This document shows, piece after piece, positions 11,385 through 34,391 of a stretch of DNA of 64,000 nt; the first letter of the stretch is position 1; every line of letters starts with the position of its first letter. The notes beneath the pieces were generated by a model. The model saw only the letters and a list, made by a program, of their open reading frames with translations. It had not been told where the DNA came from and made no database searches. Position numbers and translations under genes: made by a program. The stretch spans positions 160,001 through 224,000 of the forward strand of contig CAWJPJ010000005.1 of assembly GCA_963844715.1 (NCBI GenBank), in the 5' to 3' direction. This stretch comes from an uncultured Phycisphaerales bacterium. GTDB taxonomy: Bacteria > Planctomycetota > Phycisphaerae > Tepidisphaerales > Tepidisphaeraceae.

Positions 11385-12269
11385 GGCCTGTCTGATGAAT
11401 CGCTTTTGGTTATAAATAGCGGTTTTCAGACGAGGTGTCACGGATGCGACGTTATGAGCTCACGGATGAGCAGTACGAGTTGATCGGCGATCTGCTGCCC
11501 GGCAACGGCAAGCGCGGCGGGCAGTGGAACGACCACCGCACCACGCTCAACGGCATGTTCTGGATTCTGCACTCGGGCGCTCAATGGCGCGAGATGCCCG
11601 AACGTTACGGCAGATGGCAAAGCGTCTACGACCGCTTCAACCGCTGGAGAAAGGACGGAACGATTGATCGAATCCTCCAGCGGCTGCAGATGAGGTTGGA
11701 CAAGCAAGGACGAATCGACTGGGACCTGTGGTGCATCGACGGCACCAATGTGCGAGCCAGTCGATCCGCCGCCGGAGCCAGAAAATCAAAACCGCCCCGG
11801 AAGAACCGGCGGATCACGCGTTGGGCCGCAGCCGAGGCGGGTGGGGCAGCAAGCTCCACCTGGTTACTGACGGCCAGGGAGTTCCGCTCGCCGTCGAGGC
11901 CAGCGCCGGCCAATGCCACGAGAGCCGGTACGTGGAGCCGGTGATGAACGCGATGCGCATCGGTCGCCGCCGTCGTCGCCCCAGGAGGCTGGCGGGCGAC
12001 AAGGGATACAGTTACGGAAATGTGCGGCGATGGCTGCGTCGCCACCGAATCCAAGCGGTGATCCCGGCGAAATCGAATCAGCCGCCGCAGGAGAACTTTG
12101 ATCGCAAGGCGTATCGCCGACGGAACGTGGTGGAGCGTTGCGTGAATTGGATGAAGGAGAATCGCCGCCTGGGCACGCGTTACGAGAAACTGGCGGTGAA
12201 CTTTCAGGCCATGGCCAAGCTCGCCATGATCCGTCGCTATTTCAGGATTTTGGATTCATCAGACAGGCC
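11385..12269 (+). mobile_element. IS5-family element, 885 bp, copy 1 of 3
   Basis: IR GGCCTGTCTGATGAATC; CTAG on both sides; same translated ORFs as the copies at 33507 and 37331. Confidence 0.95.
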
Positions 12270-12273
12270 CTAG
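11435..12273 (+). CDS. IS5-family transposase in two ORFs joined by a -1 frameshift
   Basis: orfA RRYELTDEQ...IDGTNVRA; orfB ALGRSRGG...DKGY...RNVVER...RYEK. Confidence 0.9.
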
Positions 12274-16100: not shown

Positions 16101-16907
16101 ATGACGCGATCTGTCACATCCGCGCAAATGCCGCCGCCGCAGGCGCAGTTGATGGACCGAATGTATCGCGTGCAACGCTACTTCTATGATATCACGCGTA
16201 AATACTATCTATTGGGGAGGGATCGGCTGATCGCGCGGATGGGGGTTTCGCCGTCGGACAAGGTTCTGGAAATCGGGTGCGGGACGGCGCGGAATCTGGT
16301 TGCGCTGGCGCGAAAACACCCGGGGGCGCAATTCTTCGGCGTGGACGCGGCCAATGTGATGATCGAGACGGCTTGCAAAAAAGTGGCGGGCAACGGACTG
16401 GACGGAAGAATCCATCTCCGCCAGGGGTTGGCGGAGGGACTTGACGCCGGCGGGTGGTTTGGTGTGCCCGCTTTCGATCGGATATTCTTTTCTTACTCGC
16501 TCTCGATGATCCCGACGTGGCAGGCGGCGCTGGAGGCGGCGCTCGGGAATCTCAAACCCGAGGGGGAACTGTGGATCGTCGATTTTTGGGATTTGGGAGG
16601 GTATCCCAGAGTGGCGGGGAAAGTCCTCGCGGCGTGGCTGGAGCTTTTCCACGTTCGGCATCGGCCGGAGCTTTTGGTTCATCTTAATGAGCTGCAATCG
16701 TCGGGGAGGGGGGAGCTGAGTTTGGAGCCGATCGGGCGACGGTATGCATACCTACGCGCGGTTCGTCAAAAGCGCGCAATTCGCTTCTCAATCTTAATCG
16801 TAATCATAATCATAATCTTAATCTTAATCCTTCACTCCGACTGCGCGGAGCTGAAAGACGAAGGCAAAAATATGATTACGATTAAGATTATGATTAAGAG
16901 CCTCTAA
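16101..16907 (+). CDS. btaB: SAM-dependent N-methyltransferase of betaine lipid (DGTS) synthesis; true stop probably near 16797
   Basis: MDRMYRVQRYFYDITRKYYLLGRD, VLEIGCGTARN and FSYSLSMIP. The Ile/Leu-rich tail is the translated hexamer repeat. Confidence 0.85.
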   Translation: MTRSVTSAQMPPPQAQLMDRMYRVQRYFYDITRKYYLLGRDRLIARMGVSPSDKVLEIGCGTARNLVALARKHPGAQFFGVDAANVMIETACKKVAGNGLDGRIHLRQGLAEGLDAGGWFGVPAFDRIFFSYSLSMIPTWQAALEAALGNLKPEGELWIVDFWDLGGYPRVAGKVLAAWLELFHVRHRPELLVHLNELQSSGRGELSLEPIGRRYAYLRAVRQKRAIRFSILIVIIIIILILILHSDCAELKDEGKNMITIKIMIKSL

Positions 16908-17791
16908 CAAAAATGCACTTCCCCATGTTTATGGTTGATCGGACAATACGGCTTGGTCTTAGCCATGGAGGGCTTTATGACCAAGCCGTTGGTGACCGAC
17001 GAGCTTTGGGAGTTGATCCGACCCCTGCTTCCCAAGCACCGCAGTGGTCCAGGAAAGCGCGGCCGGCCGCCGCTGGACGATCGCGCGGCGTTGTCGGGTA
17101 TTCTGTTCGTGCTCAAAACCGGCATTCCGTGGGAATACCTTCCCCAGGAGATGGGATGCGGCAGCGGCATGAGTTGCTGGCGTCGACTGCGCGATTGGAA
17201 CCATCGTGGGGTTTGGACGAAGCTGCACGGACTATTGCTGAATCGATTGCGGCGGTCGAATGCCATCGACTGGTCGCGGGCCTTGGTGGATTCTGCTTCC
17301 GTGCGGGCCGTGCACGGGGGAAAAAAACGGGTCCGAGCCCGGTAGATCGCAGGAAAAACGGTTCCAAGCACCATGTATTGACCGATGGCAACGGCACGCC
17401 GATGGTTGCCCTCCTGACGGCGGCCAACCGCCACGACATCACGCAACTGCTGCCGCTGATCGATGCGATTCCAAAGGTCTCGGGCAAACCGGGCCGGCCG
17501 CGCTGGCGGTTCGAGGTGGTGCAGGGAGACCGGGCGTATCACTCCGAACCGCACCGAAAGGCGTTGCGTCAGCGTGGCAGCCGCCCGTTGCTGGCCCGAC
17601 GCAACCGCCCGCACGGAAGTGGTCTTGGCAAAACCCGCTGGCCGGTGGAGCGTACGCTGAGTTGGTTGCATCAGAATCGCCGACTGCGAGTCCGTTACGA
17701 AAAACGGCCCGACATCCACGCCGCGTTCATGACCGTGGGTGAGGCAATGATCTGTTGGAACAGGCTTCATTCGCATTTTTGTTAGAGGCTC
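16898..17791 (+). mobile_element. IS5-family element, 894 bp
   Basis: 19-bp IR GAGCCTCTAACAAAAATGC; TAA duplication at 16895-16897 and 17792-17794. Confidence 0.93.
16977..17785 (+). CDS. IS5-family transposase, frameshift at G5A7 (17316-17327)
   Basis: VTDELWELIRPLLP...CWRRLRDW...VDSASVRA; GPSPVDRRKNGSKHH...GDRAY...RWPVER. Confidence 0.9.
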
Positions 17792-17845
17792 TAAGATTAT
17801 GAAGAGGAGTAAGAGCAGGAGTAAGAGTAAGAGAAGGATCGCGGC

Positions 17846-18436
17846 ATGAATAAGACGAATCCCAAGGTCGATGGGTTTTTACGAAAAGAAAAAAAGTGGC
17901 CGAAGGAAATGAGGGAACTGAGACGGATCGTCCTTGACTGCGGACTGGTCGAAGATGTGAAGTGGCGGCAGCCTTGTTACACCTTCGACGGGAAAAACAT
18001 CATCATCATTCATGGCTTCAAGGAATACTACGCGTTTTTGTTCTTCAAAGGCGCGCTGCTAAAGGATGCTCATCATATTCTGGTCAGGATCGGCCAGAAT
18101 ACGCAGGCCGGGCGGCAAATTCGGTTTACGAATGTTGAACAAATAATCGAGATGGAGCCGATCTTGAAGGCTTATATCGGCCAAGCCATCGAAGCGGAAA
18201 AAGCGGGGCTGAAAGTGCCGCTCAAGCGGACTTCAGATTACGCAATTCCCGAAGAGTTCCGAAGTAAGCTGAATAAAACCCCGGGCCTGAAGACTGCGTT
18301 CAAGGCCCTGACGCCCGGGCGGCAAAGGGCCTACATCCTGTATTTTTCCTCGGCCAAACAATCCAAAACCCGGGTAGCAAGGATCGAAAAATGCCTGCCG
18401 CGAATTCTCAGGGGGAAGGGATTGGATGATGAGTGA
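17846..18436 (+). CDS. YdeI/OmpD-associated family protein (DUF1801 + OmdA)
   Basis: NPKVD...LRRIVLDCGL...KWRQPCY...FFKGALL...LTPGRQRAY...AKQSKTR. Confidence 0.9.
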   Translation: MNKTNPKVDGFLRKEKKWPKEMRELRRIVLDCGLVEDVKWRQPCYTFDGKNIIIIHGFKEYYAFLFFKGALLKDAHHILVRIGQNTQAGRQIRFTNVEQIIEMEPILKAYIGQAIEAEKAGLKVPLKRTSDYAIPEEFRSKLNKTPGLKTAFKALTPGRQRAYILYFSSAKQSKTRVARIEKCLPRILRGKGLDDE

Positions 18437-18456
18437 AGCCGCCGGGGAGGCGATTT

Positions 18457-18472
18457 GATGGATGTCACCTTT
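18457..18472 (+). repeat. Junction motif copy 1
   Basis: GATGGATGTCACCTTT, followed by a reiterated CCTTTGATTTGTC. Confidence 0.85.
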
Positions 18473-18536
18473 GATTTGTCTCGCCTTTGATTTGTCAGCT
18501 CTGAAAACTTGTCGCGCTTCACGGACTTGATTCCGG

Positions 18537-19278
18537 TCAGGCGTTCGTTCCGCCATCTACTGTGAGGTTCGCGCCGGTGATATATCCTGCCTCGGGCCCG
18601 GCGACGAACGCGACCAGGGCGGCAACCTCGTCGACGTGCCCATAGCGGCCGAGCGAGGCATTGGCCTTCTGCCCGACGGACCAGTCGCCGGAAGCGGGGT
18701 TCAAATCGGTGTCGATGGGGCCCGGCTGGACCGTGTTGACGGTCACGCCACGCGCCCCCAGTTCGCGCCAAACCCTGGGCAAACATCTTGACCGCCCCTT
18801 TGGTTGCCGAATAGGGCGCCATGTCCGACATCATGACTCGCTCGCCGAGGCACGAGCCGATCATAATGATCCGGCCGCCCGGCTTGAGAAACTTGAGCGC
18901 GGTTTTTGTCGCGACAAAGGTCCCGCGGACGTTGATGGCAAAGAGGCGGTCGAAATCGGCGAGCGTGGTTTCCTCGACCTTGGCGGGAATCGCGGTGCCG
19001 GCGTTGTTCACGAGAACGTCGAGGCGCCCGAATGTGGCGGCTGTTTTCTCCACCGCGCTCTTGACCGCTTCCGCATCGGCAGCGTGGGCCTTAATCGCCA
19101 GCGCCTTTCTGCCGGCGAGTTCGATCGACTTAACAACCGCCATGGCGGCATCCGCGCTGTTCGTATAGGTGATGCACACGCCCGCGCCATCGGCGGCAAG
19201 CCGTTTTGCGATCGCGGCGCCGATGCCACGCGAGCCACCTGTGACCAGTGCGACTTTGTCCTTCAATGGCTGAGCCAT
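18537..19278 (-). CDS. Short-chain dehydrogenase/reductase (apparent frameshift ~18765)
   Basis: TGGSRGIG, NNAG, YSATK, VQPGPIDTD and LTVDGG. Confidence 0.9.
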
Positions 19279-19688
19279 GATCCCGCGCCTTTCTTTGAAT
19301 ATGCTTTGGTCCGGGGGGTGCTAGGACGCCGGCCGCGGCTTATCAATAAAATTATTCTCAGCGCGCCAACGAGCGCGCACCTTCGAATGAGCCTGACCGT
19401 GAGATAACTCAACGATATCAGGCAGATCGTCAGCATCAATATTTGAATCCATCGTGCGGCCGTGACGGAAATGCCCACGCCGGTGAATAGTGCGACGTAA
19501 GCCGCGACGCACAGCGGGCACTTGGGCATCAACACAAGCAGCGTGGTCGGGAACAGCCACTGGATTCCTCGCCAGGCGCGACGAAAAAGACCCGGCGGGC
19601 ATTTGCCATCGCATGGATTTGGGCGATCCGGTTTTGCCGCCAGCGACTCTGATGCGGATTCGTGATCGCAAAATGGGCAGTTGCTCAT
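19263..19688 (-). CDS. Small Cys-rich membrane protein with PKCPLC motif
   Basis: CPFC, CDGKC and LMPKCPLCVAAY with two hydrophobic segments; start overlaps the DUF899 stop. Confidence 0.65.
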   Translation of the reverse strand: MSNCPFCDHESASESLAAKPDRPNPCDGKCPPGLFRRAWRGIQWLFPTTLLVLMPKCPLCVAAYVALFTGVGISVTAARWIQILMLTICLISLSYLTVRLIRRCALVGALRIILLISRGRRPSTPRTKAYSKKGAGSWLSH

Positions 19689-20404
19689 GGGTGCTCCGCT
19701 CCTTCCTTGCCATATTCATCATGGCGGTGCCACCAGGTGCTCGCCTTGCTTCGCCGCCCACCGGCGGGGGAGTCTTGCCAATCCTCCTGACGGCCCAAAG
19801 GCGTGAGGTCGAGCAAGGTCCACATGTTCAACCCTTCGACGCCGCGGCCATTGGTATGGTAGGTGCGATAAACATCTTTATCGTCGTGAATGAACACGCT
19901 CAGGCCATATTTCTCGTACTCCTCGGTCGTGAGGCCGAGATCTTTGTTGAAGTCGGAGCCTTCGGAGGAGTACCAGGGATACACCCACCCCATCCGCTTT
20001 TTATATTTTTCGATATTCTTCAGAGGCGCCAGCGAGACCAGGCAGAAGGACGTATCGCGGGCGTGGAAATGCTCGATGTGGCCGAACTGATCCGTCACCA
20101 TCGAGCACCCGACGCACCCCGCGTCCGGCCAGCCTCTCACCGACGGCGCGAACATAAAATGATAGAGAAGGAGTTGCCGCCGGCCTTCGAACAGATCGAG
20201 AAGCGTCAGTTTGCCCTTCGGCCCGTCGAAGAGATATTTCTTTTCGATCCGCACCATCGGCAAGCGCCGCCGCTCCGCGGCCAGCGCGTCAAGCGCATGC
20301 GTGGCCTCCTTTTCCTTGACCAGAAGGGCGTCGCGCGCCTTTTGCCATTCGGCTTCACCGACGATTTTCGGGAATTTGATCGCGTTGTCGCCATGTGATT
20401 TCAT
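19685..20404 (-). CDS. DUF899 family thioredoxin-like protein
   Basis: RRRLPMV, LFEGRRQLLLYHFMF, GCVGCS, LDLTPLGRQE and WHRHDEY. Confidence 0.9.
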   Translation of the reverse strand: MKSHGDNAIKFPKIVGEAEWQKARDALLVKEKEATHALDALAAERRRLPMVRIEKKYLFDGPKGKLTLLDLFEGRRQLLLYHFMFAPSVRGWPDAGCVGCSMVTDQFGHIEHFHARDTSFCLVSLAPLKNIEKYKKRMGWVYPWYSSEGSDFNKDLGLTTEEYEKYGLSVFIHDDKDVYRTYHTNGRGVEGLNMWTLLDLTPLGRQEDWQDSPAGGRRSKASTWWHRHDEYGKEGAEHP

Positions 20405-20454
20405 AAATCCGATCCCTTTCATTTGCCTCTTGTCATGCCACGTTGCCGCAGCCA

Positions 20455-21216
20455 TCACCCGTCGTACTCGTTGTGGGGCGCCCCTAGCTACCCTTGCTGC
20501 GTCCCTTGGGCGCACGGTCGAGCCAGGGGTACTTGCCCCAGATCGCTTCCACTCCGCGCATAGGTGGAATACGTGTGGTAGACAACGCCGTCCTCGAGCG
20601 CGAACGCGCTCATGCCTTCCCGCTCGCGTGCATAGGTTCCCACATCGGTCCCCGTCGTGGCCGCGTTATTGGCAGGCGCAGAGGCCGCCGCTTCGGCCCG
20701 GGCGATATTCATCACGGGGTCGTCGCGGCGGAAGTTGTAATCAGCGCCGTCGCGCATTTGCTCGGCAGTGAACGAGACGTGGAAATCAAAATTAAAGTCG
20801 CTCCCGAACGAAGACGCCCAGGGGAAAGTCCAGCCCTTCTGCCGCTTATATGCCTGCAACTTCGCCAGCGGCGCTCGCGACACCGCCCAAAGCACCACGT
20901 CGTGATTCGCCAGGTGGCCGGTAATCCCGTTGAAGCCATCCGCGATGGATGAACACGACGGACACCCCGCCTTGTAGTCGGGCCCGAACATGAAGTGGTA
21001 AACCAGCAATTGCGAACGCCCTCTGAAGAGATCGGGGAGCGATGCTTTCCCTTCATCGGTCTCGAAGATGTATTCCTTCTCGACCCGAACCCACGGCAGC
21101 TCCTGCCGGCGACGCGCCACCTCGTCGCCGTGCCGTGTCAGATCCTTCTCCGCCTTGAGAAGATCGAGCCGGGCTGCAAGCCACTCTTCATGTGTTCCAG
21201 TCTTGTGTCGAGTCAT
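20455..21216 (-). CDS. DUF899 family protein with degenerate C-terminus (possible pseudogene)
   Basis: RRRQELPWV, LFRGRSQLLVYHFMFGP and GCPSCS; frameshift after STYAR and a TAG before the HNEYDG* end. Confidence 0.8.
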
Positions 21217-21315
21217 GGTTTTCCCTCATTTCAGTTTTCCGCCATTGGGTTACCGTTGACCGCGTTATAAGTTGGTTTAGTTTTGCGCCTTTCACTCATT
21301 TGACGCATCCGTTGA

Positions 21316-22040
21316 TTACGCCCTAGCCGGCTCGGGTTGGAGGTATGCCGCGAACTGGCGCTCCAGCGCCTTGACCGCGCCGTTGCGCCAACCCTCCGCC
21401 ACGGACTCTGACATGGGATCGGGGAAGATTTCCTCCTCGCCTTTCTCCACTCCATCGAGGATGGCCCGCGCAACCGACTCCGGAGAAGCCTTGGGTATGT
21501 CCAGGCCTCTTGTCATGTCCGTGTCCACGGGGCCGGGAAGGACCCTATGGACGCTGACGCCCCGTCCGGCCAACAAAGTGCGCAGCGACTGCGACAGCGA
21601 AAACGCGGCCGCTTTTGAGACGGAATAAGCCGGGCTGAACGGCACGGCGGCAAGGGACGACAACGACAGCACGTTGACAATGGCTCCCCGCGACCGAGTC
21701 AGCAACGGCAGGAAAGCCCGCGTCACATCGTAAGGGCCGAAAAGATTCACGGCGAGTTGCTGTTCGAGCACACGCCGATCGCTAAGGTCATCGAATGGCG
21801 ATACCCCGGCGTTGTTGATGAGCATATCGAGAGATTCGACCTTATCGGCGGCTTCCCGAATCTGCTCCGCCTCGGTCACGTCCAGGGTCAGAGCGATGAC
21901 CCGCCGATCCGAGTGAGCCGAGGCTTGGCGCATACCGGCATACACCCGATTCGCCCCTCTCCTCAACGCTTCCTCGACCAGCGCCGCCCAATCCCACGAT
22001 TAGCTCCAGTGATCAGGATTGTCTTGTTCGCGATTTGCAT
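21316..22040 (-). CDS. Short-chain dehydrogenase/reductase (apparent frameshift ~21985)
   Basis: MQIANKTILITGANRG start at 22040; INNAG, YSVSK and PGPVDTDM. Confidence 0.85.
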
Positions 22041-22186
22041 AAACGGTCCTTTCCAAAAATCGGGCGAGCCGCGTTCAGCGGAAGTTATTTTCAAACGTAA
22101 TTCGCTCGACGGAGACACAAGGATACGTCCATCCCTTTCGTTTCTTATAGCTCGCAGCGCTTATTACAGGAGCCAGGGATCCAGTT

Positions 22187-22612
22187 CTATCCGCGCTTTT
22201 TCTCCGCGGCGCTGCGAATCATCTCCAGCATCTCTCCCCAGCCTTTGCTGACATCTTGCTGGAGTTGGGGCGGGATGAGACCCATGGCCTGGTGCGTGAA
22301 TTTCAGCAACGTGCCGCCGTCCTGTTCGGTGAGGCGGTACTGGATGAACGAGATCGCCGGATAGGACATCATCGTCGGCCCGACGAGTTCCAAAAGTTTC
22401 GGCGGCTTGATGACCTGGACATGTCCCCACAGGTGCCCGGTGTTATTGCCCAGGTCTCGGAACCAGCGCCCGCCGGGCCACGGCTCGAGCTTCATCTTCA
22501 TTTCCTTCATCGGGCCGTGGGGTTCGAGGACGGTTTCGAAGACCACATCCGCCGGCGCGGCGATCTGCACTTCTTTGACGACGTTGAGGACTCTGATTTC
22601 TTCACTGGCCAT
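22187..22612 (-). CDS. SRPBCC/AHSA1 domain protein
   Basis: IAAPADVVF, LEPWPGGRW and TLLKFTH...GW; follows ArsR. Confidence 0.85.
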   Translation of the reverse strand: MASEEIRVLNVVKEVQIAAPADVVFETVLEPHGPMKEMKMKLEPWPGGRWFRDLGNNTGHLWGHVQVIKPPKLLELVGPTMMSYPAISFIQYRLTEQDGGTLLKFTHQAMGLIPPQLQQDVSKGWGEMLEMIRSAAEKKRG

Positions 22613-23000
22613 GACTCTGCTCCTTTAAACGGGGTTGATGTTTGGACGCGGCCGGATCGTGGGCCGCGCGTTGTTTGGCTTTTCGTTCGGCGGCTTCCTT
22701 GATGCCGTCGAGATGTTCGGTCCAGAAGCGCTCGAAGTTTTGAATCCAGTCGTGCACAGGTTTGAGCTCCTTCGGGTTGAGCCGATACAGGCGATGTTGC
22801 CCCGCTTTGTGAACCGCAACGACACCCACCTTTCGCAGCACGCCCAGGTGCTTCGAAACAGCCGGCTGGGGCAGGCCGAGCTTGATGACCAGCTCCGTCA
22901 CATTACGTTCGTCCCCCAGGGCCAGGTAATCGACAATCTCCCGCCGCCGGGGCTCGGCAATGGCGTTGAACACATCCGAGGTCGTGGCGGCTCGAGGCAT
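22602..23000 (-). CDS. ArsR/SmtB family transcriptional regulator
   Basis: DVFNAIAEPRRREI...QPAVSKHLGVLRKVG...RLYRL. Confidence 0.92.
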   Translation of the reverse strand: MPRAATTSDVFNAIAEPRRREIVDYLALGDERNVTELVIKLGLPQPAVSKHLGVLRKVGVVAVHKAGQHRLYRLNPKELKPVHDWIQNFERFWTEHLDGIKEAAERKAKQRAAHDPAASKHQPRLKEQSHGQ

Positions 23001-23006
23001 GGGATT

Positions 23007-23034
23007 AGTATATTCTCGTATGGGAATATGTCAA
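23007..23034 (-). promoter_or_regulatory. Sigma70 promoter with overlapping operator; probably leaderless
   Basis: TTGACA-N16-TATACT ending 6 nt before the ArsR ATG; palindrome ATATTC-N8-GAATAT at 23010-23029. Confidence 0.75.
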
Positions 23035-23270
23035 GGAAAAATATTTGGGTGGGTTGGAAATCCTCCATCGGGCTCGATCGGAACGCCGCTGGGCTCAACA
23101 TAGGGAAGTTATCGCACATGCCGTTTGGCTGGAACGAAAAGCCAGGTCGGCCACGCAGCGCGTCGATCCGGGCCGCTAACGGAAATCGAATTTTGTAGGA
23201 TTGTTCGACCGTTGCTCTTTGAGATTTGATCGGGCTACCATTACCTCGATCAATTTGGAGTGAATCCAAC

Positions 23271-24023
23271 ATGCCATCAAAACTTTCTCGAAAAGTCGCG
23301 GTTGTGACCGGTGCATCCAAAGGACTCGGTGCGGAAATTGCTCGGCAGCTTGCAAGCGAAGGAGCTTCGGTTGTCGTCAATTATTCGACCAGCCGGTCGG
23401 GCGCCGACAAAGTCGTAGCCGACATCACCTCCAAAGGCGGCAAGGCCATTGCCGTCCAGGCTGATGTATCGAAGGCTTCGGATGTAAAGCGATTGTTCGC
23501 GGAGACGAAGAAGGCGTTCGGGCGACTGGATGTGCTGGTCAACAACGCGGGCATTTATCAGTTTGCACCGCTGGAGGAAATCACCCCCGAAGATTTTCAC
23601 AAGCATTTCGACCTCAATGTACTGGGCGTGATCCTGACGACCCAGGAGGCGGTCAAGCTTTTCGGACCTGACGGGGGAAGCATCGTGAATATCAGTTCCA
23701 TGGCGTCCACCGAGTCGTTGCCCAGCTGCGGTGTCTACGCGGCGTCAAAAGCCGCCGTTAATTCCCTGACGCGGGTTTTCGCAGCCGAGCTAGGTGGCAG
23801 GAAAATCCGCGTCAACACGGTTGCCTGCGGCCCGGTAGCAACCGAAGGCGCCGTCGAATTCAGCGATCCCAACAGCGACTTTTATAAAATGTACGTGGCA
23901 AGGGCGAAGCTCGGCCGCATTGGTCAACCGAACGACATCGCTCCGGCCGTCGTCTATTTCGCGTCGGACGATTCGAAGTGGGTGACCGGCGAAACGCTTT
24001 TTGTCACGGGGGGATTCGGATAG
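23271..24023 (+). CDS. Short-chain dehydrogenase/reductase
   Basis: TGASKGLG, NNAG, YAASK and WVTGETL. Confidence 0.92.
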   Translation: MPSKLSRKVAVVTGASKGLGAEIARQLASEGASVVVNYSTSRSGADKVVADITSKGGKAIAVQADVSKASDVKRLFAETKKAFGRLDVLVNNAGIYQFAPLEEITPEDFHKHFDLNVLGVILTTQEAVKLFGPDGGSIVNISSMASTESLPSCGVYAASKAAVNSLTRVFAAELGGRKIRVNTVACGPVATEGAVEFSDPNSDFYKMYVARAKLGRIGQPNDIAPAVVYFASDDSKWVTGETLFVTGGFG

Positions 24024-24060
24024 CTCGCAAATTGCCTTGGCCATTCATCGGGAGAGATTC

Positions 24061-24507
24061 ATGCTCGCTGAAACTTCGAATCAGTCCCACTTGCGTCGCT
24101 CGGCACAGATCCTTGGGTATACGACACTCCGACTGGCGATGGGAATGAGCATGGCGATGCACGGGCTGGCCCGCATGCCCAAATATCGTGTGTTTATCGA
24201 CGGGACGCTGAAGCTCTTCGCCCATTCGCCGCTGCCGGCGCCGGCGGTACGCGCGTTCGCGGGAATCACGCCATTTGCCGAGCTGCTAATCGGCATTCTT
24301 GTTTTTTTCGGATTCCGGACCCTGTTAGGCCTTACGCTCGGGGGCCTCTGGATGGTCATCCTGATATTCGGCAGCACCCTCATCGAAAACTATGAGGTTG
24401 TCAGTATTCAGCTACTCTACTCCCTGATCTTCTTTCTTCTCCTCCAACATTTGGACCAAAATATCATTTCGGTCGACGGGCTGATTATTCGCCGACGGGC
24501 AACCTAA
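24061..24507 (+). CDS. DoxX family membrane protein
   Basis: LRLAMGMSMAMHG, ELLIGILVFFGFRT and SVD; four hydrophobic segments. Confidence 0.8.
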   Translation: MLAETSNQSHLRRSAQILGYTTLRLAMGMSMAMHGLARMPKYRVFIDGTLKLFAHSPLPAPAVRAFAGITPFAELLIGILVFFGFRTLLGLTLGGLWMVILIFGSTLIENYEVVSIQLLYSLIFFLLLQHLDQNIISVDGLIIRRRAT

Positions 24508-24519
24508 TAAACACGTAAT

Positions 24520-24651
24520 AAGGTGACATCCATAATTTCCATGGGATTTCGAAAACCACCGCCCGCGATGACCGGGTCAATCGTTGAAGATTTCGCCGAT
24601 AAATTGGCAATCGGATTTCGGCGGATACCGAATTGATGGATGTCACCTTTT
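24520..24651. repeat. Junction motif copies 2 and 3 as an inverted pair (MITE-like, 132 bp)
   Basis: AAGGTGACATCCAT at 24520-24533 and GATGGATGTCACCTTTT at 24635-24651. Confidence 0.8.
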
Positions 24652-25074
24652 AGCCTTTTCTGACTTGGAAGCAATACGGGCGCTCTATCAGCATCTGCAT
24701 CCTTCGGATCCAATGCTGCCGACCGGCGAATTGCGCGAGGCCTGGCATGCGCTGCTGGGAAATCCATCGGTTCATTGCCTTGTCGGAGAAATCGAAGGGG
24801 TCCTTGTTTCGACATGCACACTTGTGCTCGTACCCAACCTGACCCGATCGGCCCGCCCCTACGGTTTTATCGAGAATGTTGTCACGCACGAGGCGCACCG
24901 GCGAAAAGGTCTGGGAACTGCAATTCTAAAAGGCGCCTCGATCTGGCATGGGGCCAAGGCTGCTACAAAGTCATGCTGATGACCGGCTCGACCAAAGAGC
25001 AAACCCTGCGATTTTACGAGCATGCGGGATTTCGGCGAGGTGAAAAGACCGCGTTCGTCGCCCGCCCTGGCTGA
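24652..25074 (+). pseudogene. GNAT acetyltransferase lacking a normal start; frameshift ~24935
   Basis: FSDLEAIRALY...VPNLTRSARPYGFIENVVTH...RRKGLG...GCYKVMLMTG...FYEHAGF. Recognisable homology begins immediately after the motif. Confidence 0.75.
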
Positions 25075-25274
25075 CTCCAGACCGTTCCCCTCGCGGCAGC
25101 GTCCGCAAAACGGATTCGACCGTGACTTATCAGATCCGGGTGGCCGCACACCAATCGAACTGTTTGCCTGCTTTTTCGCGAAATTCGGAGGCTTCGGCTT
25201 CGTCACAATAACGGCCACGTAACGTCACGGCTGTCAATATCCGCCCATCGCGCTTCCCCGTCACATGGTTCTTC

Positions 25275-26210
25275 GTGCTGCTTTTCGCGCTCGCGGCAGT
25301 GCGGACGTCTCTCTTTCGTTTTGTCCCGCCATCTGTCGTTCCGTATGTCCTCTGGCCTTACTTATTTAGCCCGAGCCTCGTTGGTCTGATCATGATTCTG
25401 TGGCTGCAGGGCCTCCCGGGGATTCGAAGAGTAGTCCAAAAGCTGACTCCCCGGGCGGTTGGGCGAGCTTGGCCGATGCTGGCAATCTGCGTGCTTTTGC
25501 CATTGGCGTGCCTGCCGCTGTTCATCGCTCTCCTAGCCGCGTGCGGCACCCCCGCTCCGTCCCTGTGGAGGATCAACCTTTCAGCATATTTCTACGCCGC
25601 GTTCATCAGCAAGGGATTGCTCGGGCCGGGAATTATCGAGGAGATCGGCTGGCGCGGATTCGCTTTGCCATATCTTCAGCGTCGTTACACCGCCTTGGCA
25701 AGCAGCGTCATTATTGGCGTCGCGTGGGCGCTGTGGCACGTTCCGTTTCTCGTGAACGAAAGCCCCGTACCCTGGCGATACGTGGCGCTGTTCATCCCCC
25801 AAGTCATCGTATATTCGATCCTCTTCACGTGGGTTTACAACACAACCGGTGGAAGCCTGCTCGCGGTGATCCTGCTGCACGGAGCCATCAACGCCCGGCA
25901 ATTTCTGGCCGATTGGCGCCTTCTGCCGGACACGGCCACGACGCAAATCCTGGAGGGGATGCCGTTTCTCCTCATAGCGGTCGCCATATTGCGGCGATAT
26001 GGGCCTTCAACTCTGTCTCGATGCGAGCGTGTCGCGGCGCCATTACCTGAGTCGTTGAATTCGCGGGCGACACCAACATCGATGGATGTCACCTTTTACT
26101 CCCACCCTTTAGCCGCTTCTATTTTTGGCCGCGCCCGTGTTCCGCAACCGCCCAAAGGCGGAGGTCTCCGAAAAGTTTCGCGAGTGCCGCAGGCTGGTAG
26201 TGGGCGTTAA
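25275..26210 (+). CDS. CPBP/CAAX (Abi) intramembrane metalloprotease; start and end uncertain
   Basis: EEIGWRG, WALWHVP and ILLHGAIN motifs. The frame runs through the motif into convergent mug. Confidence 0.85.
   Translation: MLLFALAAVRTSLFRFVPPSVVPYVLWPYLFSPSLVGLIMILWLQGLPGIRRVVQKLTPRAVGRAWPMLAICVLLPLACLPLFIALLAACGTPAPSLWRINLSAYFYAAFISKGLLGPGIIEEIGWRGFALPYLQRRYTALASSVIIGVAWALWHVPFLVNESPVPWRYVALFIPQVIVYSILFTWVYNTTGGSLLAVILLHGAINARQFLADWRLLPDTATTQILEGMPFLLIAVAILRRYGPSTLSRCERVAAPLPESLNSRATPTSMDVTFYSHPLAASIFGRARVPQPPKGGGLRKVSRVPQAGSGR
26081..26097 (+). repeat. Junction motif copy 4
   Basis: GATGGATGTCACCTTTT. Confidence 0.85.
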
Positions 26211-26704
26211 TCCCGCTGGGGTTCGGAAGAACCCAGGCGTGGCTCCCGCCGAAAAGCGGCTTTTGCAGCCCGACGCGGGCGTCTTTGATGCCGGAGACGA
26301 CTCGATAGGGATGAATGCCGACAAACGCGACCACCGTCGGCCGCCAGCGCCTGACTTTCGCCTCAAGCCGCCGCCCGCCGGCGCGAAGTTCGTCGTCGGT
26401 CAGTTCATCCGCCCGCGCGGTCGCGCGCCGGACGATGTTGGTGATCCCGAACCCGAGGTCCAGAAGAAGCGATTCTTCAAACGGCGAGAACAGCCGCGGC
26501 GTGAATCCGCCGTCGTAAAGAGCCGGCCAGAATCGATTACCAGGCCGCCCGAAGTGACGCCCAATCGCGGTGGTGTACAGCCCGGGATTGATCCCCGCGA
26601 AAAGGACGATGAGGTCTTTGGCCGCAAGATCCGAGATGAACTTCCCGCGCGGCCAGGAGCTGCGCTTTCGTGGGTTTCCAGGGAGTGGGTAATGTCCGAT
26701 CCAT
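26119..26704 (-). CDS. mug: G/U mismatch-specific uracil-DNA glycosylase (apparent frameshift ~26645)
   Basis: GINPG, HFGRPGNRFW, GITN and LPNPSG. The N-terminus MDRTLPTPWKPTKAQLLAAR is in another frame. Confidence 0.88.
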
Positions 26705-26875
26705 AGGCCGGCGTCCTCGAAGGGCATCCTGCGGCAATCGGAAGACTGTAGCGGGGCAATCTCAGAAAGAGAATCCAGTTGGAGAATCCAGTTGACCTGC
26801 TGCGGCAAAAGTTACCGCCGGGACCGGGAATGAATCGGAGGGAATCAAAAAAAAGGGAGAAAAAAGGAGAAAGAA

Positions 26876-26892
26876 AAAAGGTGACATCCATC
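26876..26892 (-). repeat. Junction motif copy 5
   Basis: AAAAGGTGACATCCATC, preceded by reiterated AAAAAGG units. Confidence 0.85.
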
Positions 26893-26933
26893 ATTTCGAC
26901 GGTGCTCAAAATTCGCGGGCCTCTCACAGTGGG

Positions 26934-29769
26934 TCAATCGTCCAAGATTTCATCGATGAGTTGCGAATCCGGTGTCGTCGAACCGGTGTCCGCGTCGCTC
27001 GCGCCGCCTTGCGACGCCCTCGCCGCCACAAAAGCAGGCGAAATGGTGTCCGGCGTCTCCACCGCGGCCGGCGCTGCGGCGGGTTGCGTCGTCGTCGGCA
27101 CAACCGCCGGCGTGAGCGAAATCCACGAAAACCACTCGCGCCATTTCAGTGGAATAGCCAGGACTTCAAACGAGTTAGTCGAGCTTGCGGTAAGAGAGCC
27201 GTCCGTGAAGTTGAAGGTAAACGTGCCGCGTTGCGCGGGGTAGAGATTGTTGAAGTGTGCGTAGCCGCCGGCGACTTGGGCGGTGGTGTTGCCGTTGAGG
27301 GGGACGTCAGGGGTCGCGGTCACGCTCACCGTCGAGGCATCGTTCGTCGCCAGGTTCCCAAATTGATCCTCCAGCGCCAGAACCGTGTCCAGCGAGACGG
27401 GACCATATTGCCCGGCTACGAAATTCTGCGCCACGATCTGCATCTGTGTAGCCGCCCCGGCGGAGACGCTAAAACTGCTAGACGTAGCCACAGCGAGGGA
27501 GCCGTCCGTGGCTTCGACCGTATACGTGCCGGCTTTGGTGATCGTGAGATTGCCGAACGTCGCCTGCCCGCTGACGGCCGCGGCTGTGGTCGTGCCAGAT
27601 AAAGTTCCAGGGCCGCTGGCAACCGCGATCGTCACGCTCGACGAATCGCCGCCGATCACATTTCCAAACTGATCTTCAACATCAACCGTCACCGCCGGCG
27701 AGATCGCATCCCCCGCGACAACGTCCGTCGGTTGCTGCACAAACGCCAACCGTTCCGCCGTAGCCGGCGAGACCGTGAAGCCGACCGAAGTCGCGGCCGT
27801 CAGCGCGCCATCCGCGGCAGTGAGCGTGTAAGTTCCCGCTGCGTCGATGACAAGATTGCTGAAAGTCGCCACGCCGCTCACGGCCGCGACTGTTACGGTT
27901 CCGCTCACGGCCCCAGGCCCGGTCGCGACGGAAATCGTGACATTGGAATTGTTGGTCGTGACAAGATTCCCATCCGGGTCTTCCAAATCGACGACCAGCG
28001 CCGGCGCGATATCAGCCCCCGCGACAACATCGCTGGGTCCCTGCACAATAATCAACTGAGACGCGGCCGCGGCCGTAATGGTAAAGCTGTTGGAAGTCGC
28101 GCCGGCGAGCGACCCGTCGGCGCCCTCGAGGGTGTAAGCCCCAGGGTGGTTCACCGAAAGATTGCTGAATGTGGCCACACCGTCCACGGCGGCGACCGTC
28201 GTTGTGCCGGACAAAGTCCCCGAGCCGCTGGCCAGCGACAGGGTCACGTCCGACGAATCGGTGGTCACAACATTTCCGAATTGATCCTCGACATCGATGG
28301 TAACGGCGGGCGTGATAGACGCTCCAGCCGAGACGCCGGTCGGCTGCTGCGAAAACGCAAGTTGTGCGGCGGCGCCAGCCGAGACCGTGAAGCTGCTTGA
28401 TGTCGCTTTGTCGAGGCTATCGTCGCTTGCGGTGAGCGTATAAGTCCCGGCCTCGTCAATTTTGACATCGCTGAAAGTCGCCACGCCGTTCACCGCGTTA
28501 ACGGTTACCGTGCCGGTCAGCGTGCCTGGCCCGGTGTTCACGGCAAGGGTGACGCTCGAATCATCGGTCGTGACGATGTTGCCATTGGAATCCTCGACAT
28601 CGACGACCAGCGACGGCGAAATCGCGCTCCCGGCGGTTGCATTCGATGGCTGCACATTAAACGCCAATTCCGCGGCGACGGGTCCCGACCCGCCTTCGGT
28701 GATATTGCTGCCGACGAGAGCCGAGATAATTTTTTCGCCGATCGGGCTCCCCAGGCCGGTATTACCGAAGCCGGTGATGGCATTGAAATCCGTCGAAGGC
28801 AGCCCCTCGATATCCGGGATGGTTTGCGAAGGACCGTCGAGGGAAGAAAGCCCGAGGAGTGCCCGGCCCTGATCGGCCAGAGCGATAATGGCCGCCCACT
28901 GCGGCGTGCCGGCGCTGGTTCCGCCAACAACCTCCCATCCGGATTCGCCTTGATACTCGAGGGAATCGTAAACGAGAAAGCCCGTATTCGGGTCGGCATC
29001 ATAGGAAACGTCCGGCGTGGTCGTCCCCTCGTAGGGGCTGGTTCCGCCGCCGCTGTCGACCCACGGAGATTCGCTCAGCCAATTGCCCGAATTATCGACT
29101 TCCAATGTCGTTCCACCGACGGCCAAAACATTGGGGGACGTCGAAGGGAAATTCGTCTCCCCGTCATCCCCCGACGCGGCCAGGAAAGTAATGCCCGCGT
29201 GTCCGGAAGGCGTGGTGAAATCATGATCGTAAGCGGTCTCGCCCGAGAACTCGGGGGACGATCCCCAGCTCATGGAGACGGCCACCACGCCGGTCTGCGA
29301 GGCCGCCCAGGTTTCGGCCTGGGTGAGCGCCGAGATGCTCGTGGAATTCGCTTCGACGAGCATGATGTTGGCCTCGGGCGCAATGGCGTGGGCCCATTCA
29401 ACGTCGAGAGATTCTTCCAGCCCCCAGCCTGCGTCGGGGGAGACGGCGCCCTCGGGCGTTTCGACGGTCAGGACAAATTCCCCGTTGGCGTTGTCGTTGG
29501 TGATGCCGAAGTTGGCGTCGAAGGTTTCCAGATCGCTGACGATGTTGGGGTCCCCGTAGGCATCCACGATGGCGATCGTCTCCCCCGCCGCCGGTGGCGT
29601 TCACGGTCTGGCCGTTGTATCTGAATATGATGTCTTTGAGTTGGTACGCCTGCTCGATCATGGCGGGGGAGAGGCCGCCGGGCGAGCCGGACGTATCGAC
29701 GGAAAACAGCAGCCTCCGCTCGAGGCGCTCGATGGCGACCCTGGCATGCTTGCGCTGAAGCGGGATCAT
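26934..29769 (-). CDS. Secreted S53 (sedolisin-like) peptidase with LEPR-XLL signal and four or five Ig-like repeats (apparent frameshift ~29590)
   Basis: IERLERRLLFS; EESLDVEWAH, ASGDDG and GGTSAGTP catalytic motifs; LAFxQQP...VEDQFGN repeats. Confidence 0.85.
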
Positions 29770-33462: not shown

Positions 33463-33506
33463 GAATGGCGAGTTACCAGCCGCCCGCGAGTCGACGCCTT
33501 GACTAG

Positions 33507-34391
33507 GGCCTGTCTGATGAATCCAAAATCCTGAAATAGCGACGGATCATGGCGAGCTTGGCCATGGCCTGAAAGTTCACCGCCAGTTTCTCGTAACGCG
33601 TGCCCAGGCGGCGATTCTCCTTCATCCAATTCACGCAACGCTCCACCACGTTCCGTCGGCGATACGCCTTGCGATCAAAGTTCTCCTGCGGCGGCTGATT
33701 CGATTTCGCCGGGATCACCGCTTGGATTCGGTGGCGACGCAGCCATCGCCGCACATTTCCGTAACTGTATCCCTTGTCGCCCGCCAGCCTCCTGGGGCGA
33801 CGACGGCGGCGACCGATGCGCATCGCGTTCATCACCGGCTCCACGTACCGGCTCTCGTGGCATTGGCCGGCGCTGGCCTCGACGGCGAGCGGAACTCCCT
33901 GGCCGTCAGTAACCAGGTGGAGCTTGCTGCCCCACCCGCCTCGGCTGCGGCCCAACGCGTGATCCGCCGGTTCTTCCGGGGCGGTTTTGATTTTCTGGCT
34001 CCGGCGGCGGATCGACTGGCTCGCACATTGGTGCCGTCGATGCACCACAGGTCCCAGTCGATTCGTCCTTGCTTGTCCAACCTCATCTGCAGCCGCTGGA
34101 GGATTCGATCAATCGTTCCGTCCTTTCTCCAGCGGTTGAAGCGGTCGTAGACGCTTTGCCATCTGCCGTAACGTTCGGGCATCTCGCGCCATTGAGCGCC
34201 CGAGTGCAGAATCCAGAACATGCCGTTGAGCGTGGTGCGGTGGTCGTTCCACTGCCCGCCGCGCTTGCCGTTGCCGGGCAGCAGATCGCCGATCAACTCG
34301 TACTGCTCATCCGTGAGCTCATAACGTCGCATCCGTGACACCTCGTCTGAAAACCGCTATTTATAACCAAAAGCGATTCATCAGACAGGCC
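33507..34391 (-). mobile_element. IS5-family element, 885 bp, copy 2 (transposase 33503-34341)
   Basis: Same IRs, CTAG flanks and translated ORFs as copy 1. Confidence 0.95.

Follow-up and report, generated by a model that had tools for sequence, protein, structure and literature searches.

Solo Terminal Inverted Repeats of a Y1 Transposase Element at a Patch of Accessory Genes in an Uncultured Phycisphaerales Bacterium

Introduction

The locus described here raises the question of whether small transposases of the RAYT family, which occur in about one quarter of bacterial species (PMC5581495, PMC6006769), can move host genes. It lies in a stretch of 64,000 nucleotides from an uncultured Phycisphaerales bacterium (GenBank assembly GCA_963844715.1, contig CAWJPJ010000005.1, positions 160,001 to 224,000, forward strand), which is called the window and is meant at its full length. 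Five exact copies of a 14-mer punctuate an island of small accessory genes in this window. An earlier reading, made from the sequence only, had taken the copies for the joining sites of a gene-capture system whose enzyme acts in trans. The available text of the papers that describe the class contains at most slight evidence that it confers gene mobility (PMC3733652, PMC6006769, PMC5581495, PMC8266576; all citations below likewise refer to the part of each source that was available).

We take the five motifs for detached copies of a TIRtron's terminal inverted repeat (TIR), and think that the transposase of this element likely made at least the two junctions at which a GNAT gene and a CPBP gene are truncated; on this reading, taken as a whole, our judgement is evenly balanced. 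The base-resolved truncations, the traceable origin of the block between them and a duplicated gene end make capture more concrete than position alone would, without proving it. Moreover, the locus combines base-resolved junctions with a cognate enzyme of 223 amino acids and a site of about 31 nt, which makes it testable whether these enzymes move host genes. In the following, G, C and L numbers are our handles for genomes, contigs and loci, G000 being the genome that holds the window.

The Repeats and Their Parent Element

The five copies of the 14-mer start at 18458(+), 24520(-), 24636(+), 26082(+) and 26878(-), within 0-2 bases of the positions given in the sequence-only reading, and no sixth copy was found when the window was scanned with up to one mismatch. 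The sequence quoted there as CACCCCTTTAG actually reads CACCCTTTAG. Not one of 100 shuffles of the window reached five copies, and none gave any. In the whole genome (4.55 Mb in 8 contigs) there are 13 copies of RTGGATGTCACCTT, of which six are at the ends of two elements, five in the window and one each at C6:618714 and C7:682386. The clustering of five of the seven non-element copies within 8.4 kb was obtained in 0 of 200,000 random placements.

The 14-mer is the TIR of a 776-bp element, formed by a transposase gene between two TIRs, that lies outside the window in the same genome. This element is found at C6:612461-613236 and on C8, identical over its 776 bp, with a 28-bp TIR unit in both copies and with unrelated flanks; the element was recently copied. 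Its product is a 223-aa Y1 transposase that matches PF01797 above the Pfam cut-off. Across 49 aligned proteins the NHWH motif is invariant and Y121, in YVEANP, is near-invariant, and the structural model (mean pLDDT 91) has the E. coli TnpA-REP, 4ER8, as its best fold match. The score against the NCBIfam RAYT model NF047646 is 65.5, below the cut-off of 80. For the C-terminal tail, in which the model places three short helices at 165-204, Pfam gives nothing besides Y1_Tnp. The search for a transposase of this kind in the window found none, in agreement with the sequence-only reading, and the two elements on other contigs provide the Y1/RAYT enzyme in trans that this reading had expected to find flanked by the motif.

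It is very improbable that the motif is a transcription-factor operator, or a feature due to chance or assembly. The island does contain an ArsR regulator and stress genes, and the assembly is rich in frameshifts. However, the motif forms the precise terminus of a transposase element and is absent from the orthologous operons, four of its five copies adjoin gene 3' ends and the fifth replaces a start codon. The shuffles give no copies, as said above, and the pair formed by the second and third copies (TIR 2/3) is confirmed by short reads. These come from four soil DNA runs of one study, at low depth, with no RNA run among those listed and one DNA run possibly from the source sample, and one of their contigs agrees with the sequence over 24483-25083, which includes this pair and the GNAT start. 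Another short-read contig has a 5-base gap at 26868, which could stem from another TIR copy. Among the joints and loose ends listed for the runs, with 170 loose ends left out, none is at a TIR, a result that has no bearing on excision.

Extent of the Repeat and Its Stuttered Tips

The motif is present in 39 of 140 genomes of the family, in which a reversed control gave 1 match (G004 is counted only within these genome tallies). Close relatives of the enzyme (E 1e-40 or better) are found in 100 of the 140, and the motif is present in 10 of 11 further genomes in which the best match to the transposase reaches 57% identity or more, kin not being independent. In 108 distinct motif contexts, about 30 of which come from a single genome, the conserved stretch extends from 6 nt on the inner side of the motif to 12-13 nt past CACC, where it drops to background; therefore, the true repeat measures about 31 nt. 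Its conserved edge is about 11-13 nt past CACC and not at CCTT|T, where the sequence-only reading had set it.

Strict repeats of at least 8 nt that include the tip follow 29 of the 108 contexts; shuffling the flanks gives 0.96 on average, and on the inner side such repeats are seen in 13 of the 108. This analysis supersedes an earlier and cruder test on 53 elements (76 loci, of which 71 were long enough and 56 had an inverted repeat), in which 24/106 outer and 10/106 inner ends were stuttered. The stutters are re-copies of the TIR tip and tail. Target-site duplication was considered as their source and ruled out at GNAT, whose orthologue lacks the tail.

In the window, solo TIR 1 (18452-18496, +) has a GATTTG in common with the right end of the element, the core at 18458-18471, an 11-nt tail to 18480 and, after it, the tip plus tail copied again as a 13-nt strict repeat. 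The 11-nt tail of TIR 2 (24511-24533, -) stops 3 nt past the DoxX stop codon, and TIR 3 (24636-24658, +) is formed by the core and an 11-nt tail that abuts GNAT codon 9. Solo TIR 4 (26070-26115, +; core 26082-26095) has an inner flank like that of the left end and a loose re-copy of the tip, and solo TIR 5 (26845-26897, -; core 26878-26891) has a pyrimidine-rich tail that is loosely reiterated. All five regions fold no better than shuffles (z -0.8 to +0.7), with no hairpin.

Truncated Genes and a Duplicated Gene End

The GNAT acetyltransferase gene (24659-25074, +) has lost codons 1-8 and its upstream region. Among the 140 genomes its sole close orthologue, in G153 (81% nt), is intact, and the similarity between the two begins at 24659, exactly 11 nt past CACC, at the outer tip of TIR 3. 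The start codon that the sequence-only reading had reported lost at this copy is indeed replaced, as the short-read contig agrees, and the same contig indicates that an internal frameshift of the gene is an assembly error. The ATG of the TIR was tried as a substitute start produced by a homopolymer error and was ruled out, since the short reads match the assembly.

The other truncated gene encodes a CPBP/Rce1-like protease according to Pfam (25239-26210, +), and the short-read contig places its start codon at 25239. Its match to an 80% orthologue in G144 stops at 26060, about 20 nt before TIR 4, and the orthologue ends about 13 codons later. As had been noticed from the sequence, the CPBP frame reads through TIR 4 into the antisense of mug; this holds for the assembly, and the listed short-read pieces do not span 26082.

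The two orthologues have a common setting, each being a single gene between copies of R2, a 55-bp direct repeat. R2 is present in 48 of the 140 family genomes and in several forms co-oriented arrays that separate single small genes. Such arrays lie downstream of tRNA-Pro in G153, in G071 and twice in G000, and they may constitute a separate cassette-accretion system; no tyrosine integrase is adjacent to them in the three genomes checked (G000, G144 and G153). The window retains, between GNAT and CPBP, an R2 remnant (25148-25196, +; weak right half, nhmmer E 0.086) that aligns with the copy preceding the G144 CPBP gene, and it does so without a tRNA-Pro. Because of this remnant and of the array setting of the orthologues, the 1.4 kb from 24659 to 26060 looks like a captured fragment of an R2 array, cut within both genes and bounded by two direct TIRs. 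The left half of R2 resembles the reverse complement of the tRNA-Pro 3' end. Arrays were recorded at L264:8290-16664, L288:7874-14732, G000 C4:88840-90404 and C6:968011-971409.

Besides this fragment, there is a gene end that occurs twice. The 102-nt spacer of TIR 2/3 (24534-24635, -) is a diverged copy of the last ~13 codons and the 3' untranslated region of the secreted-protein gene next to TIR 5. The two align in register with the TIR over 63/107 columns with a score of 76.5, against a null maximum of 51.5, and 0 of 5000 random segments score as well. Gene end plus TIR are hence present twice, 2.36 kb apart, with interiors about 60% alike and cores identical at 14/14 positions, for which neutral drift would give a probability of about 0.001 by a hand estimate. 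The unit may be either an old duplication or an arrival from the orthologous locus of a donor, and the TIR core would have been preserved or renewed either way. The TIR 2/3 pair was also considered as a miniature element left by internal deletion, which is ruled out, the spacer having no match to element interiors.

The gene concerned encodes a large secreted protein with Ig repeats (26934-29567, -) and ends 42 nt to the inner side of TIR 5. Its motifs suggest an S53/sedolisin-like protein; Pfam gave Ig-like matches only. An 8-base motif match past the stop of the G002 homologue was too weak and is not used.

Comparable Arrangements in Other Genomes

Related elements also have TIRs at a distance. 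Extra copies more than 300 bp away were found at 14 of 53 usable loci. They number 25 in 0.5 Mb, where the control gave 0, and 13 of them have the same orientation and 12 the opposite one. G097 has 8 TIRs in 3.4 kb (L392:3200-6580, G097:C35), with stuttered doublets and small genes between facing tips, the geometry described in the sequence-only reading; this array, which includes an SMI1/KNR4 gene, is the clearest cassette-like one that we have seen. In G069 the gap between pgi and pgm is filled by the element, a HEPN gene and a solo left TIR, the same gap measuring ~200-350 nt between matches in G034, G073 and G074 and 1.5 kb in G024. In G005, 423 bp made up of a TIR and non-coding DNA that does not belong to the transposase are duplicated; the two copies agree fully over their inner 123 nt and differ in their tails. 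On C6 of G000 the element, a cargo of 5.5 kb and a solo TIR in facing orientation take up a slot where G002 has a different gene. The ispD-purA slot was examined as an empty site and rejected, since G002 has a different gene there, so that it is a variable slot.

The family in G129 (= G165) has TIR units of 66-85 bp and, among the copies listed, 9 two-ended ones with one fixed tip, together with 8 right-end-only fragments (~64-660 bp) and 1 left-end-only fragment. With 30 TIR copies (L347-L357) it is highly active, and it often lies beside another repeated sequence of 500-900 bp. Clean empty sites were sought there by means of repeated target DNA, and in the 11 regions fetched the left and right flanks are nowhere contiguous.

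Another reading of such loci is that of decayed composite transposons, in which cargo moved between two full TIRtrons whose interiors were later lost, leaving solo TIRs; the translocatable units of IS26 are a parallel. Many full and partial copies close together in G129, a second left-end copy 5.65 kb from the element at L048, and the succession of element, cargo and facing TIR on G000 C6 and G069 C4 are what such a history would produce. In the window, however, no solo copy retains more than 6 inner bases of the resident element or any transposase remnant, and the TIR 2/3 spacer comes from a host gene and not from the element. We consider composite decay improbable here.

The Island and the Weight of the Evidence

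Pfam confirms the gene blocks that had been named from the sequence. A YdeI/OmpD-associated (DUF1801) gene (17846-18436, +) stands on the inner side of TIR 1. Block B (18497-24510), with SDR1, a hypothetical gene, two DUF899 genes, SDR2, AHSA1, ArsR, SDR3 and DoxX, lies between facing TIR tips, as does the mug/UDG gene (26119-26704, -) between TIR 4 and TIR 5. The picture of clean cassettes has to be given up, as two genes are truncated and the big block holds other breaks. In G153, YdeI is the third gene of an ArsR-AHSA1-YdeI run, and the similarity of its 3' untranslated region extends to ~6 nt before TIR 1. Thirteen gene junctions can be followed from YdeI to the secreted protein. Synteny breaks, as the sequence-only reading had predicted, at all four TIR-bearing junctions, two of them within genes, and none of the five junctions conserved in relatives carries a TIR.

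Several observations weigh against the enzyme as the maker of this patch. The conserved junctions are those of a six-gene core, hypothetical-DUF899-DUF899-SDR2-AHSA1-ArsR, which relatives keep without this TIR. Of the eight junctions not seen in the loci fetched from relatives, four have a TIR, one has R2 and three have neither, so that other processes also shuffle the island, and the excess over conserved junctions (4/8 versus 0/5) has a Fisher p of ~0.1, calculated by hand. In both G143 and G153, YdeI and mug are already found within 3-12 kb of the core, and in G153 this is so without this TIR. Composition is unremarkable, with G+C of 0.585, 0.583 and 0.619 in blocks B, D and E and 0.601 in the window. 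No close strain with an empty site was found for comparison, the informative orthologues of GNAT and CPBP are one each and from other genera (70-90% nt), and the R2 remnant is weak. The one-ended fragments of G129 could be products of decay. Strict reiteration is present at one of the five window TIRs, 18458; of the four stuttered copies reported earlier, those at 26082 and 26878 stand in a loose form only, and that at 24636 is the normal 11-nt TIR tail. The five copies have five different tails and 0-6 inner bases in common with the ends of the resident element, and hence the resident enzyme need not have placed them. Otherwise identical elements also differ in their tails (C6 versus C8, and L393), so the tip is not one fixed cut.

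Many of these points would suit a reading in which the TIRs are scars without transport, short TIRs and doublets having spread in the manner of REP or REPIN sequences into a plastic and dispensable island built up in other ways, where deletions made by the enzyme next to them clipped GNAT and CPBP. TIRs are described as singles, dimers and clusters (PMC3733652), and in G111 the same TIR is found as ~12 short, compact inverted doublets, REPIN-like, on many contigs (e.g., L401:2935-2975). Scars would also fit the absence of TIRs from half of the non-conserved junctions, the closeness of core, YdeI and mug in G143 and G153, and the variable slots that draw other repeats and IS5 too. On the other hand, two independent insertions with deletions would be needed at both ends of one 1.4-kb piece derived from an array, with tRNA-Pro far off, and the duplicated gene end plus TIR would be left unexplained, as would the 423-bp duplication of G005. 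Scars are a real possibility, to which we give clearly less than an even chance.

What was proposed as a gene-capture system has, in short, kept its enzyme and its breaks; it has lost ground in that the TIR is at half of the non-conserved junctions and that the enzyme class has already been named (TIRYT).

Proposed Mechanism

For the reading that we prefer, with the transposase as maker of the truncating junctions, the enzyme would act in trans on single-stranded DNA and recognise the TIR as a sequence and not as a hairpin. It would cut at or near the outer tip, and the fixed tip would then be joined to a second, loosely chosen cut. If this cut is near, stutters and tandem TIR units of 28-85 bp would result; if it is far, adjacent DNA, copied or moved together with the TIR, would form a piece or a circle and be deposited at or beside another TIR. 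The products would thereby range from stutters over tandem units of 28-423 bp and one-ended fragments to kilobase pieces at other TIRs. Deposition after a far cut would account both for the truncated GNAT-CPBP fragment, with a direct TIR on either side, and for the second copy of the gene end with its TIR. Over repeated rounds, small accessory genes would gather and be rearranged around TIRs already in place, with an integron-like outcome that is blind to gene boundaries. The different tails on identical copies suggest that exchange within the TIR core is possible as well.

We infer cargo transport by the enzyme from these arrangements, and think it likely that it helped to splice this accessory-gene patch together. 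The element, which is of a known kind, would then plausibly have new behaviour attached to it. If this holds, genes of soil Planctomycetes would commonly be shuffled by this route, given the enzyme relatives in 100 of 140 family genomes.

A bolder proposal, which we offer tentatively and consider rather doubtful, is that TIRYTs are a system of gene accretion in trans, which would circularise DNA next to a solo TIR and integrate it at other TIRs that selection keeps intact, and in this way build the accessory-gene arrays of Planctomycetes, here by raiding a tRNA-Pro-linked array. A RAYT-family HUH enzyme would then fulfil an integron-like function, and "domesticated" transposases would have a long-sought role.

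Relation to Known Systems

On its architecture the element is a TIRtron, a little-studied known kind. The TIRtron/TIRYT class was named by Di Nocera, De Gregorio and Rocco in 2013, with TIRs as singles, dimers and clusters (PMC3733652). A Y1 HUH transposase gene between non-REP TIRs, with TIRs dispersed as well, is common to that description and to our element, of whose 13 motif copies in G000 seven are dispersed outside elements. The inward strand of the TIR agrees at 6/8 positions with GGGGWSAS, a motif of some TIRs only. Stuttered tips, recent multi-copy transposition, gene truncation at solo TIRs and cargo have no mention in the available text of that paper.

The element probably belongs to subclass 2.1 of TnpA-Y1 (Quentin 2018, PMC6006769), which equals RAYT group 1 (Bertels 2017, PMC5581495), judging from the Y---NP motif (here YVEANP), the long C-terminal tail, the lack of a REP hairpin and the link to TIRYTs. 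Its HuH motif reads NHWH, the subclass signature being NH[VYF]H, and Pfam detects no helix-turn-helix family in its tail, where the subclass has a domain of helix-turn-helix type. It differs in its copies, two identical ones at different sites here and 9 two-ended ones among those listed for G129. RAYT group 1 has the highest duplication rate among RAYTs, 6.2% (PMC5581495). A literature search, with most subscription papers outside its scope, found no biochemical test of the TIR-associated subclass. A search on cargo, capture and one-ended activity of such enzymes gave nothing relevant; figures and supplements, which may list planctomycete TIRs, were outside its scope.

The REPtron of E. coli, TnpA-REP with REP/BIME sequences, provides the closest solved fold, 4ER8 (PMC3333891, PMC8266576). 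TnpA-REP transfers strands, and its cleavage of single-stranded DNA has low specificity and takes place more than 400 nt away from its site (PMC3333891). Distant cleavage, strand transfer and the model of nick-primed amplification would fit the present stutters (PMC3333891, PMC8266576). Unlike a REPtron, our element has no GTAG guide and no hairpin, and it is not flanked by palindromic REPs with GTAG. In the available text, REPtrons reportedly do not move as a unit, and no mention is made of their moving genes (PMC3333891, PMC8266576).

The Y---Q motif and subterminal hairpins of IS200/IS605 are lacking in the element. In integrons, small accessory genes are gathered at repeated short sites by an enzyme in trans, which is the likeness to the present locus; in contrast to an integron, there is no adjacent integrase here, the sites are in both orientations and two genes are cut within their coding sequence. 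The nearest tyrosine integrase (PF00589) to the island, at C5:153171, is not adjacent but ~25 kb from TIR 1. The IS91 enzyme is larger and of the Y2 kind. IS91/ISCR elements are alike in having an HUH enzyme and one fixed and one variable end, and their one-ended events co-mobilise adjacent DNA (PMC13181058). They have distinct oriIS and terIS ends without TIRs according to the available text (PMC13181058), whereas here the ends are symmetrical and inverted and the cargo is at solo sites far from the transposase gene.

Further Observations

Within the same genus, neither G001 nor G002 holds the island intact. In G143 a core of this TIR stands at the start of contig C192, and in G153 the TIR is absent. 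On the same G143 contig (L263:1560-1690), mug and YdeI have between them a left-end-like TIR and a stuttered TIR that belongs to another family. Core, YdeI, mug and GNAT have the same orientation to one another in G153 as in the window, which was set aside as too weak, with a chance of 1 in 8. The composition of YdeI, with a G+C of 0.50, is the exception among blocks that had been put forward for a compositional comparison and are otherwise similar.

Of the 119 loci from a pattern scan of metagenomes, 117 were examined and gave 0 tblastn matches to the transposase; most are chance 15-mers, and they enter no count. Between 14000 and 30000 of the window, assembly and short-read contigs differ by indels of 1-2 bases (e.g., at 21984, 24936 and 26645), and therefore what looks like a pseudogene in this genome is in many cases an error of assembly.

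Upstream of the island, between a DUF3419-methyltransferase pair and YdeI, there is a purine/pyrimidine hairpin-type repeat (window 16800-17845) into which an IS5-family element is inserted at 16895-17792; the depth of this element is high in each of the four runs. G000 has three further Y1 transposase genes with flanking repeats of their own, at C7:855767-857078 (L004), C6:877806-878572 (L007) and C7:477037-477516 (L008). At L004 a third repeat follows 500 bp further downstream; the right side of L008 is interrupted by an insertion sequence. Two copies of another DDE insertion sequence, which is also found beside L008, are at 11728-12273 and 33503-34341 of the window. Finally, a 776-aa protein with weak Pfam matches to Cas12f1-like TNB and C2c1 RuvC-like domains is encoded 700 bp from a TIRtron in G069 (L399:682-3009, G069:C1).

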